The notes beneath the pieces are model-generated. The model did not search any database, was not told where the DNA came from, and saw only the letters and a program-made list of their open reading frames with translations. 64,000 bases of DNA from Longimicrobiales bacterium (GTDB taxonomy: Bacteria; Gemmatimonadota; Gemmatimonadetes; Longimicrobiales; Gaopeijiaceae): the NCBI GenBank assembly GCA_965219445.1, contig CBDCNQ010000005.1:416001-480000 (forward strand), written 5' to 3'. Made by a program: the position numbers and the translations under genes. This document shows, one piece after another, positions 25,617-27,323 of the stretch (position 1 is the stretch's first letter; every line of letters starts with the position of its first letter).

Positions 25617-25719
25617 TTCAACATTGCGATGGAGTGGACGCCCCCCACACCGGGCACCAATGTGCGCCGGATGAGGAGAACGCACACGGGGTGCGTTCGG
25701 GACACGAGAGGGGGGATCC

Positions 25720-26766
25720 ATGGGCAAGGTGGTCAGCATCATCGGCATCGATATCTCGAAGAGGTACTTCCAACTGCACGGGGCCACGGAGGGCGGTGAG
25801 CCCGTGCTGCGCAGGAAGCTGACGCGCTCGAAGCTGCTCGAGTTCCTCGCCAAGCAGCCTGTTTGCCGGGTCGTGATGGAAGTGTGCGCGAGCGCCCACC
25901 ATTGGGGGCGGATGATCCGGGAGCTCGGCCACGAAGTCCGCCTGATTCCCCCGGTGTATGTGAAGCCTTATGTGAAGAGGCAGAAGAACGATGCCAACGA
26001 CGCCGGGGCGATCGTCGAGGCGGCCCAGCGGCCGACGATGCGGTTCGTGGCCGTGAAGACCGAGGAGGAGCAGGCACACTCGGTGGTGTTCCGGGCCCGG
26101 GAGCTGCTGGTGCACCAGCGGACGCAGACGATCAATGCGCTACGGGGTCACCTCGCGGAGTTCGGACTCGTCGTTCCGCTCGGGATCCACAACGTCGGGA
26201 GGCTGGAAGAGGCGTACGCGGAGTGTGAGGAGTTCTTCCCGGTGCTGGTACCCCCCGCGATACGCCTCCTCATCGAGCGGATCCACGACCTGGATGCGGA
26301 GATCGATGAGATGGACCGGGAGATCCGTCGGATGGTGAGGGAAGACGAGGCGCTCCGGCGCCTGATGACGATCCCGGGGGTGGGAGAGCTCACGGCGATG
26401 GCGGTCCACACCTTTGCGCCACCGATGGAGAGCTTCCGCACGGGGCGCGACTTCGGGGCATGGGTAGGGCTCACGCCGCGTGAATCGTCGACGGGTGGCC
26501 GCCAGCGGCTGGGGCGGATCACGAAGATGGGTCAGCGCGACATCAGGAGGCTCCTGTACCTGGGGGCGACGTCGGTCATCTCGAGTGCCATCCGGCGGGG
26601 GGAGGTCACCGATCCCTGGCTTCGGCGGATGCTGGACGAGAAGCCGAGGAAGGTGGTTGCGGTGGCACTGGCCAACAGGATGGCGCGCATCATCTGGGCC
26701 GTGACGGTGAAGGCGGAGAACTACAGGGCACGGGGAGTGACGAAGGCCGTTTCTGCAGCAGCGTAG
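25720..26766 (+). CDS. IS110 family transposase/recombinase
   Basis: RuvC-like DEDD residues (GIDISK, VMEV, KNDANDA) and C-terminal domain with GLTPRESSTGG, VAVALANRMARIIW. Confidence 0.96.
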   Translation: MGKVVSIIGIDISKRYFQLHGATEGGEPVLRRKLTRSKLLEFLAKQPVCRVVMEVCASAHHWGRMIRELGHEVRLIPPVYVKPYVKRQKNDANDAGAIVEAAQRPTMRFVAVKTEEEQAHSVVFRARELLVHQRTQTINALRGHLAEFGLVVPLGIHNVGRLEEAYAECEEFFPVLVPPAIRLLIERIHDLDAEIDEMDREIRRMVREDEALRRLMTIPGVGELTAMAVHTFAPPMESFRTGRDFGAWVGLTPRESSTGGRQRLGRITKMGQRDIRRLLYLGATSVISSAIRRGEVTDPWLRRMLDEKPRKVVAVALANRMARIIWAVTVKAENYRARGVTKAVSAAA

Positions 26767-26929
26767 GGTTGCGAGTCAGATGAGTGGAGCAAACGAGCGT
26801 TGGCTAGACCCGAAACCCGGAGGAGGCGAGAGATGAGATCATCGGGGGTGACGGCTCGATCACCCCAATGGGCATGAGCTGGGAAGGTCCCAACTGGAGA
26901 GGGCAGGCAGGACGGCGGACAAGGTAGGG

Positions 26930-27115
26930 GCAAACGGTCGGCAAGACGGGGTCGGAAAAACCAGTAGCCTACGATGGGCCACCGAGCCCGCCATTGCGAT
27001 TCGGATCCGATCTCACGAACACCATACGGGCCCGCGGCCAGAAATGTGCCGCACCAAGAGGCCGCACATACGACCGTACCTGACCTGACTGCCACCGACT
27101 TCGGTACGACGTCAG
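26930..27115 (+). ncRNA. Putative bridge RNA/seekRNA of the IS1111-type element (boundaries approximate)
   Basis: Lies in the 3' non-coding end; AGCCTACG (26966) and CATTGCG (26992) match the two target flanks; CCATACG (27022) and CACATACG (27065) resemble the donor junction. Confidence 0.7.
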
Positions 27116-27145
27116 GCTTGCCAACCAGGGGGGCGTCCACATTCG

Positions 27146-27323
27146 TGGGCTGGCTCCCGTCCGCTAAGCCAACTCAGCCGCCGACGCTGGGAACCCTGGG
27201 CCGTCAAAATCTCCATACCCGTACATTGACGAGCCCGCCTTATGCGGTGTCAACAACGGGCAAAGAGGCGATGTCCCTGGAGTTCCAGCGACGTACCAGA
27301 GGCGGACCCGGCTCCGCCAGCGG
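27146..27323. repeat. Diverged copy of the mob upstream region 23525-23706
   Basis: Shared strings such as gggccgtcaaaatc, agcccgccttatgcggtgtcaacaacgggcaaa and ttccagcgacgtaccaga. Confidence 0.9.

Follow-up and report, generated by a model that had tools for sequence, protein, structure and literature searches.

An IS1111-group insertion sequence with guides matching the hairpin of a predicted ColE1-type transfer origin

Results

The window (the whole 64,000-nucleotide stretch analysed here, from a Longimicrobiales bacterium) carries an insertion sequence (IS) of 1517 bp at 25627–27143 on the plus strand, in single copy in the 4.56-Mb genome. A first-pass annotation had placed an IS1111-type element at 25620–27160; the element is there, within these narrower bounds. 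Its subterminal inverted repeats (25634–25646 and 27128–27140, both plus strand) are perfect over 13 bp, with outer extensions of 7 bp (left) and 3 bp (right), as is the rule for IS1111 elements (PMC11187229). Because of this rule, the CG at the left junction was assigned to the IS. The DEDD transposase/recombinase of 348 aa (25720–26766, plus strand) contains PF01548 and PF02371, scores 315 bits with NF033542 against a cut-off of 140, and keeps D11, E54, D91 and D94 as well as GLTPRESSTGG (the GL-P----STG motif). It is followed by 377 bp of non-coding DNA with a covarying RNA fold, holding guides to both target strands with the top-strand match first. A DEDD RuvC-like domain with PF02371 and GL-P----S(t)G, subterminal repeats of 11–13 bp with 7/3 extensions, a long non-coding region 3′ of tnp with conserved RNA fold, and guides in this order characterise the IS1111 group, and their co-occurrence supports assigning the window element to these RNA-guided insertion sequences, as first proposed. 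The closest transposases (74–96% identical) come from records titled Longimicrobiales MAGs.

The right end of the window copy reads ATT, and five other same-guide right ends all read ATA. A predicted −35 box lies at 27118 (feature 27118–27143, plus strand), and a −10 box, after an 18-bp spacer, would form only at the circle junction, where the ATA>ATT end degrades it. This end breaks the predicted −10 box and one donor-guide pair, so the window copy is likely impaired unless the base at 27143 is an assembly error. Half or more of the searched IS words were found in 16 sequencing runs. Contigs of four DNA-type runs stop at the IS ends and contain neither an empty-site joint nor a circle joint. 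Four RNA runs cover the guide region at a depth of about 3–5, too low to count as evidence of expression, and no circle joint is among the contigs listed. A plasmid search with the non-coding end of the IS returned 43 records at 60–80% identity, none covering 80%.

Left of the IS, on the minus strand, lie mobC (NikA-like/MobC; 23064–23399; PF21983, PF05713) and, overlapping it, an MbeA-like MOBP relaxase of 499 aa (21575–23074; PF03432). The relaxase matches NF047848 with an E value of 7e-27, below that model's cut-off, and resembles ColE1 MbeA (33% identity over 165 aa). An intact hairpin with a CC core, a predicted transfer origin (oriT), occupies 23501–23534 in the leader of this cassette. 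The IS sits in a sister hairpin, of which the loop and the half-target CATTG remain on the left (25617–25626, plus strand) and the other target half, CG-TGGGCT running into a nic-like CTGGCT, on the right (27144–27155, plus strand). Sequence and comparison with other copies identified the left remnant. The cassette of the invaded leader is broken: domain matches and comparison with other copies reveal a 5′-truncated mobC and a 34-codon relaxase stub (24944–25272, minus strand). A 5′ remnant (domain I) of a group II intron lies in the hairpin loop (25273–25616, minus strand; RF02003 at 25378–25590) and is fused by a deletion to the truncated mobC.

The wider window contains a block duplicated about 34 kb apart (14400–20000 and 48300–53100; 77–84% identical) with ArdC, a secretion ATPase and a TraG/TrwB-like coupling protein, genes resembling VirB4/6/8/9/10 at 31915–38500, and integrases at 39156 and 45509. 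Together these look like nested integrative mobile elements. At 10700–11340 a 14-bp unit is repeated perfectly in tandem more than 30 times, beside 609-bp repeats at 6600–10570, and 27242–31057 encodes a protein of 1271 aa with Ig-like domains, leucine-rich repeats and a weak peptidase M66 domain.

Folding of the 3′ non-coding end, a check proposed with the first-pass annotation, was weak and uninformative on the single sequence (z −1.63). An alignment of 22 of 30 candidate non-coding stretches from relatives gave a consensus with two covarying loops. Compensatory changes occur in 9 of 23 pairs, which none of 500 shuffles reached, in a control inflated by relatedness; pairing in the consensus structure is 98.8%, against at most 43% in slid structures. 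The predicted target-binding loop (26949–27012, plus strand), placed by this fold and by guide/flank covariation, has an outer stem, two guides and an inner GGGC/GCCC stem between them. The first guide, AGCCTACG (26966–26973), complements the top-strand sequence to the right of the core, and the second, CATTGCG (26992–26998), is identical to the left flank plus core; the loop thus specifies CATTG-CG-TAGGCT. The predicted donor-binding loop (27022–27072, plus strand) consists of CCAT at 27022, an inner stem and CACATACG at 27065–27072. The motifs named in the first-pass annotation, including CCATAC from 27022, are all present.

Guides and flanks were compared across relatives. From 84 loci, 25 elements with both ends and a readable loop were obtained; after skipping two with a U-G core guide and merging duplicates, 19 pairs of 14 guide types remained. 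With one site per type, 130 of 154 non-core positions agreed between a guide and the flanks of its own element, compared with a mean of 55.5 and a maximum of 100 in 20000 permuted pairings. This covariation, with the consensus fold, supports the earlier identification of the two target guides. In the donor loop, CACATACG covaries with the right end (CACATA, CATAGA and CACACA types) and with the core, and seven of the eight guide types with both parts read match at the end-specific positions. It matches the donor junction at 8/8 positions for the family (ATA end) and at 7/8 for the window copy. The first donor guide, CCAT, is constant among relatives and complementary to the left end. CCATACG had been proposed as its full extent, and is only partly a donor match, because the bases after CCAT stay the same in relatives with a TG core and the CG after CCATA does not track the core; the CACATACG half of the proposed pair is supported.

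The flanks of the window IS, CATTG (25622–25626) and CG-TGGGCT (27144–27151), match the guides at 12 of 13 positions, the single difference being a G-U pair, exactly as first described. The intact leader also holds a target-like 13-mer, at 23519–23531 rather than at 23518–23530 as first given. It is the sole site in the window with at most one mismatch (0.03 expected). The genome has 12 such sites (4.8 expected in all by composition), eight of them leader-type hairpins, and four empty hairpin sites are identical to the occupied 13-mer.

It had been suggested that other insertions of this IS be collected. A guide pattern search of 401 genomes of the order gave 10 matches in nine genomes. Three of them (G280, G209, G213) lacked any IS context and were set aside as chance matches; the counts also omit two guide-less right-end stubs in G253. 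All seven same-guide copies, a small sample from six genomes of one bacterial family, touch the same family of mob-leader-type hairpins. Both hairpin halves flank the IS in the window, G306a, G248, G325 and G284; G306b retains the nic half only, and G253a, which has only a left end, the left half only. Non-core positions matched the guides at 11/11 in G248, 10/11 in the window, G306a and G325, 9/11 in G306b, 8/11 in G284 and 5/5 in G253a. Most of these copies represent separate events, because their outer flanks have diverged to 41–58% identity while the IS segments are 88–100% identical. The two exceptions are the left flanks of G306a and G248 (71%, the hairpin tail) and those of the window and G325 (99%, a shared intron); with this flank in common, the latter two insertions may not be fully independent. 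A truncated relative in G235 (L109) counts against the link between guide and site, having an unrelated guide and yet an oriT-like right flank, a combination that calls for recombination or a replaced guide. Neither the guide nor the right junction had a hit in metagenome scans, a viral scan was equally without hits, and the right-junction pattern was found in none of five genomes with more distant relatives.

What this hairpin is was assessed from its position and its motif. It lies upstream of all nine MbeA-like relaxase N-termini in this genome. The window relaxase matches 3458 plasmid records. In all eight relatives inspected, picked from the 25 best of these and being unrelated Proteobacterial plasmids, a leader with the same nic-like motif and a hairpin lies 102–178 bp upstream of mobC on the same strand. 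In ColE1, the nic-like motif lies upstream of mbeC at 1463–1469, likewise on the same strand. The nic of ColE1 falls within CTGGCTTA, a stretch flanked by inverted repeats (PMC5703827), and MOBP5 oriTs lie upstream of mobC (PMC3632715). The genome has 49 counted empty hairpins, some in duplicated contig stretches; CTGGCTTA, with its adjacent inverted repeat, is exact in 14 of them, and CTGGCT is present in all 49 by search design and also at the invaded site. We take the nicked dinucleotide to be that of ColE1, CTGG/CT, which puts the predicted nick between 27153 and 27154. In CG-type sites, read along the strand predicted to be nicked, the inverted repeat ends 8 nt before the nick, and an 8-nt spacing is typical of MOBP. 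The IS entry point falls 10 nt before the predicted nick, within the proximal arm. The oriT reading of the first-pass annotation thus gains support from homology, and the hairpin is likely a MOBP5/ColE1-type oriT whose function we infer from homology and position.

Against this stand the lack of a long hairpin in ColE1, the modest MbeA identity, and the 40 of 49 empty hairpins without a relaxase N-terminus within 700 bp. The guides could then be read correctly and the hairpin still have descended from a mob leader as a dispersed REP- or MITE-like repeat or as a promoter/operator of mobC, so that the IS would target repeats much as ISPa11 targets REP. Two further observations fit this reading: in 26 of the 49 hairpins the nic-like motif recurs upstream in inverted orientation, and none of the six invaded sites in other genomes has an intact mobC–relaxase pair on the expected side (in G306a a partial mobC lies on the opposite side). 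We nevertheless consider it unlikely, since motif, strand and distance upstream of mobC recur on all eight plasmids, the ColE1 nic motif is present, and every relaxase start has the hairpin; orphan oriTs are, moreover, expected on mobilisable islands. Some 49 oriT-like hairpins in one genome, most of them without mob genes, make an unusually large family of orphan oriTs or oriT-derived repeats.

The intron remnant is itself matched to the hairpin. Its exon-binding sites, placed with the help of relatives read at 60 loci, are EBS1 at 25323–25328 and EBS2 at 25348–25353, both within 25273–25616 on the minus strand. EBS1 pairs with the hairpin loop at 6/6 positions, one of them G-U; EBS2 pairs with the empty site at 5/6 and with the IS-occupied site at 3/6, so the intron probably arrived before the IS. 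This hairpin-matched intron is known in two copies only, in the window and in G325, where an RT-encoding copy (L093:10559–12600) has the same hairpin position.

The order of arrival bears on whether the IS recognises a folded single (transferred) strand with both guide partners on one molecule, as in integron attC. The strand predicted to be nicked corresponds to the top strand of the IS, and in its fold the CGCAATG arm faces CATTGCG. At the G248 insertion the left junction carries the donor core and the right junction the target core, the outcome expected if only the top strand were joined, and top-strand integration was reported for an IS110 element (bioRxiv 10.1101/2025.10.25.684509). This asymmetry fits top-strand joining, and also fits a left CG derived from the IS. 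In the window and G325, however, the intron was probably there first and the IS would have entered a hairpin already broken; G306b lacks a canonical distal arm, and relatives with other guides sit in linear coding targets. Recognition of a folded strand is thus very improbable, and we favour recognition of the 13-bp duplex.

The four uninvaded leaders in the window (21371, 23535, 40372, 43456) all have a CC core, as first noted, and so do the leaders of eight of the nine relaxase starts in the genome. Core pairing is strongly preferred in IS621 (PMC11208160). In G248, the left junction is CG and the right junction core GG, indicating that a CC site was invaded, while two perfect and four near-perfect CG sites stay empty in the same genome; G253a also appears to be CC-type, judging by the opposite arm. 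Among sites with the CAATG half in six genomes, CG sites number 3 invaded and 15 empty, and CC sites 2 invaded and 8 empty. The empty hairpins here have 38 CC, 10 CG and one GC core, and the opposite arm is GGG with CC and GCG or GTG with CG in 48 of 49, a covariation in line with selection acting on the hairpin. Five of eight plasmid leaders have CC and none CG, so CC is not a state derived locally. The earlier suggestion that CC-core leaders are escape variants selected by the IS is hardly tenable against an invaded CC site, CC as the commonest core and perfect CG sites left empty; a lower rate of insertion at CC than at CG is possible, given the preference for core pairing in IS621.

Close relatives with other guides were found inside other mobile elements: in domain I of the same intron family (L003, L004, L016), in the left end of a second IS1111 type (L002, L008, L011), and in IS6- and IS66-family transposase genes. 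The second IS1111 type has a guide matching GAGGC-CG-CACATAC, which is the donor loop of the window IS at 27058–27071, and is inserted in that loop in three genomes, at L002 (L002:3845), G284 (L094) and G253a (L096:9707); a contig of sequencing run X5 contains the same joint. One copy of the second type (G000 C2:610740–610960) has its non-coding region inverted relative to the other two copies. In a Paracoccaceae MAG, an IS1111 right end with its core is repeated in tandem, in units of 22 bp (L032:3758–3950).

Discussion

The anatomy of the element, the correspondence of guides and target, the recurrent use of one site family and the position relative to mob genes were read directly from the DNA. 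We have good confidence in the explanation that an IS1111-group insertion sequence, with two guides in its 3′ non-coding region, inserts by means of RNA at a 13-bp site of a predicted ColE1/MOBP5-type oriT hairpin. The IS would circularise, its joined ends forming a promoter, and RNA from this circle-junction promoter would bind the transposase. The target loop would pair with both strands of the duplex 13-bp target, tolerating a CC core mismatch, and the donor loop with the circle junction. Insertion would then take place on the nicked strand, 10 nt 5′ of the predicted nick, in the proximal inverted-repeat arm and the nick-proximal bases of the predicted oriT, and by splitting the inverted repeat it would likely impair that oriT copy. 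In this scheme RNA expression, duplex recognition, nicking and impairment of the invaded oriT are inferred steps. The hairpin likely serves as a conserved, non-essential landing pad in many copies (about 49 per genome) tied to mobile islands. Hitch-hiking of the IS at the level of the island is plausible, because four further leaders lie in the window together with integrases and genes for coupling proteins and type IV secretion.

IS1111 elements are known to be directed by guide RNAs, also to cis sites of other mobile elements: attC, Tn21 repeats and IS3 transposase genes (PMC11187229, PMC11208160). The seekRNA/bridge-RNA elements ISEc11, ISPa11, ISKpn4 and ISPst6 described there likewise combine DEDD and PF02371 domains, 7/3 subterminal repeats and a 3′ non-coding region, have the top-strand match 5′ of the bottom-strand match, and show natural reprogramming among close relatives. 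Their published targets are attC, REP, Tn21 terminal repeats and short linear sites, whereas the window IS targets a predicted MOBP5-type oriT. IS4321/IS5075 (Tn21 terminal repeat) and the IS1111-attC elements resemble the window IS in targeting conserved cis-acting DNA that belongs to another mobile element, a transposase or integrase site in their case and a predicted relaxase recognition region here. ISEc21, an IS110-group element aimed at IS3-family transposase genes (PMC11187229), is comparable to the relatives in IS6- and IS66-family transposase genes; it has a 5′ non-coding region, however, and among the present relatives one carries a guide that fits the donor-binding loop of the window IS1111. 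The mob module shares with ColE1/MOBP5 (MOB-HEN) a mobC overlapping an MbeA-like relaxase and CTGGCT upstream on the opposite strand, and differs in its distant relaxase, longer hairpin and numerous chromosomal copies. The window relaxase has the motif H-x7-H-x-H, unlike the H-E-N that we take to be typical of that family.

In the literature searched, which lay outside ISfinder, TnPedia and subscription journals, no oriT target was found for IS1111 elements. The word oriT does not occur in the accessible text of PMC11187229 or in the main text and seven searchable supplements of PMC11208160, where the target motif appears in synthetic oligos only. PMC10127599, in its accessible part, deals with integron and TrwC events, and the accessible parts of PMC5935869, PMC9282650, bioRxiv 10.1101/2024.01.30.577996 and PMC6896180 give no nic sequence. 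The mechanism is thus already known, while the target class, a predicted oriT, appears to be new.

More tentatively, the predicted oriT may be the hub of a network of RNA-guided parasites. The IS1111 element and the group II intron would both target it and shut down or ride transfer, and IS1111 variants would have been retargeted at the intron and at each other, one of them into the donor-binding loop. We regard this as possible but doubtful.

These findings extend the natural targets of seekRNA/bridge-RNA recombinases to a further class, the site at which a relaxase would recognise a transfer origin. The 14 guide types form a clean natural reprogramming series, and the natural core-mismatch insertion bears on the question of one-strand versus two-strand joining. 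Whether such elements block or exploit conjugation becomes testable, and the pattern points to conflict between mobile elements at the level of their guides. If the network exists, selection would have made guide RNAs into weapons that mobile elements use against each other, and a bridge recombinase directed at oriT would amount to a natural device for blocking conjugation or tagging plasmids.
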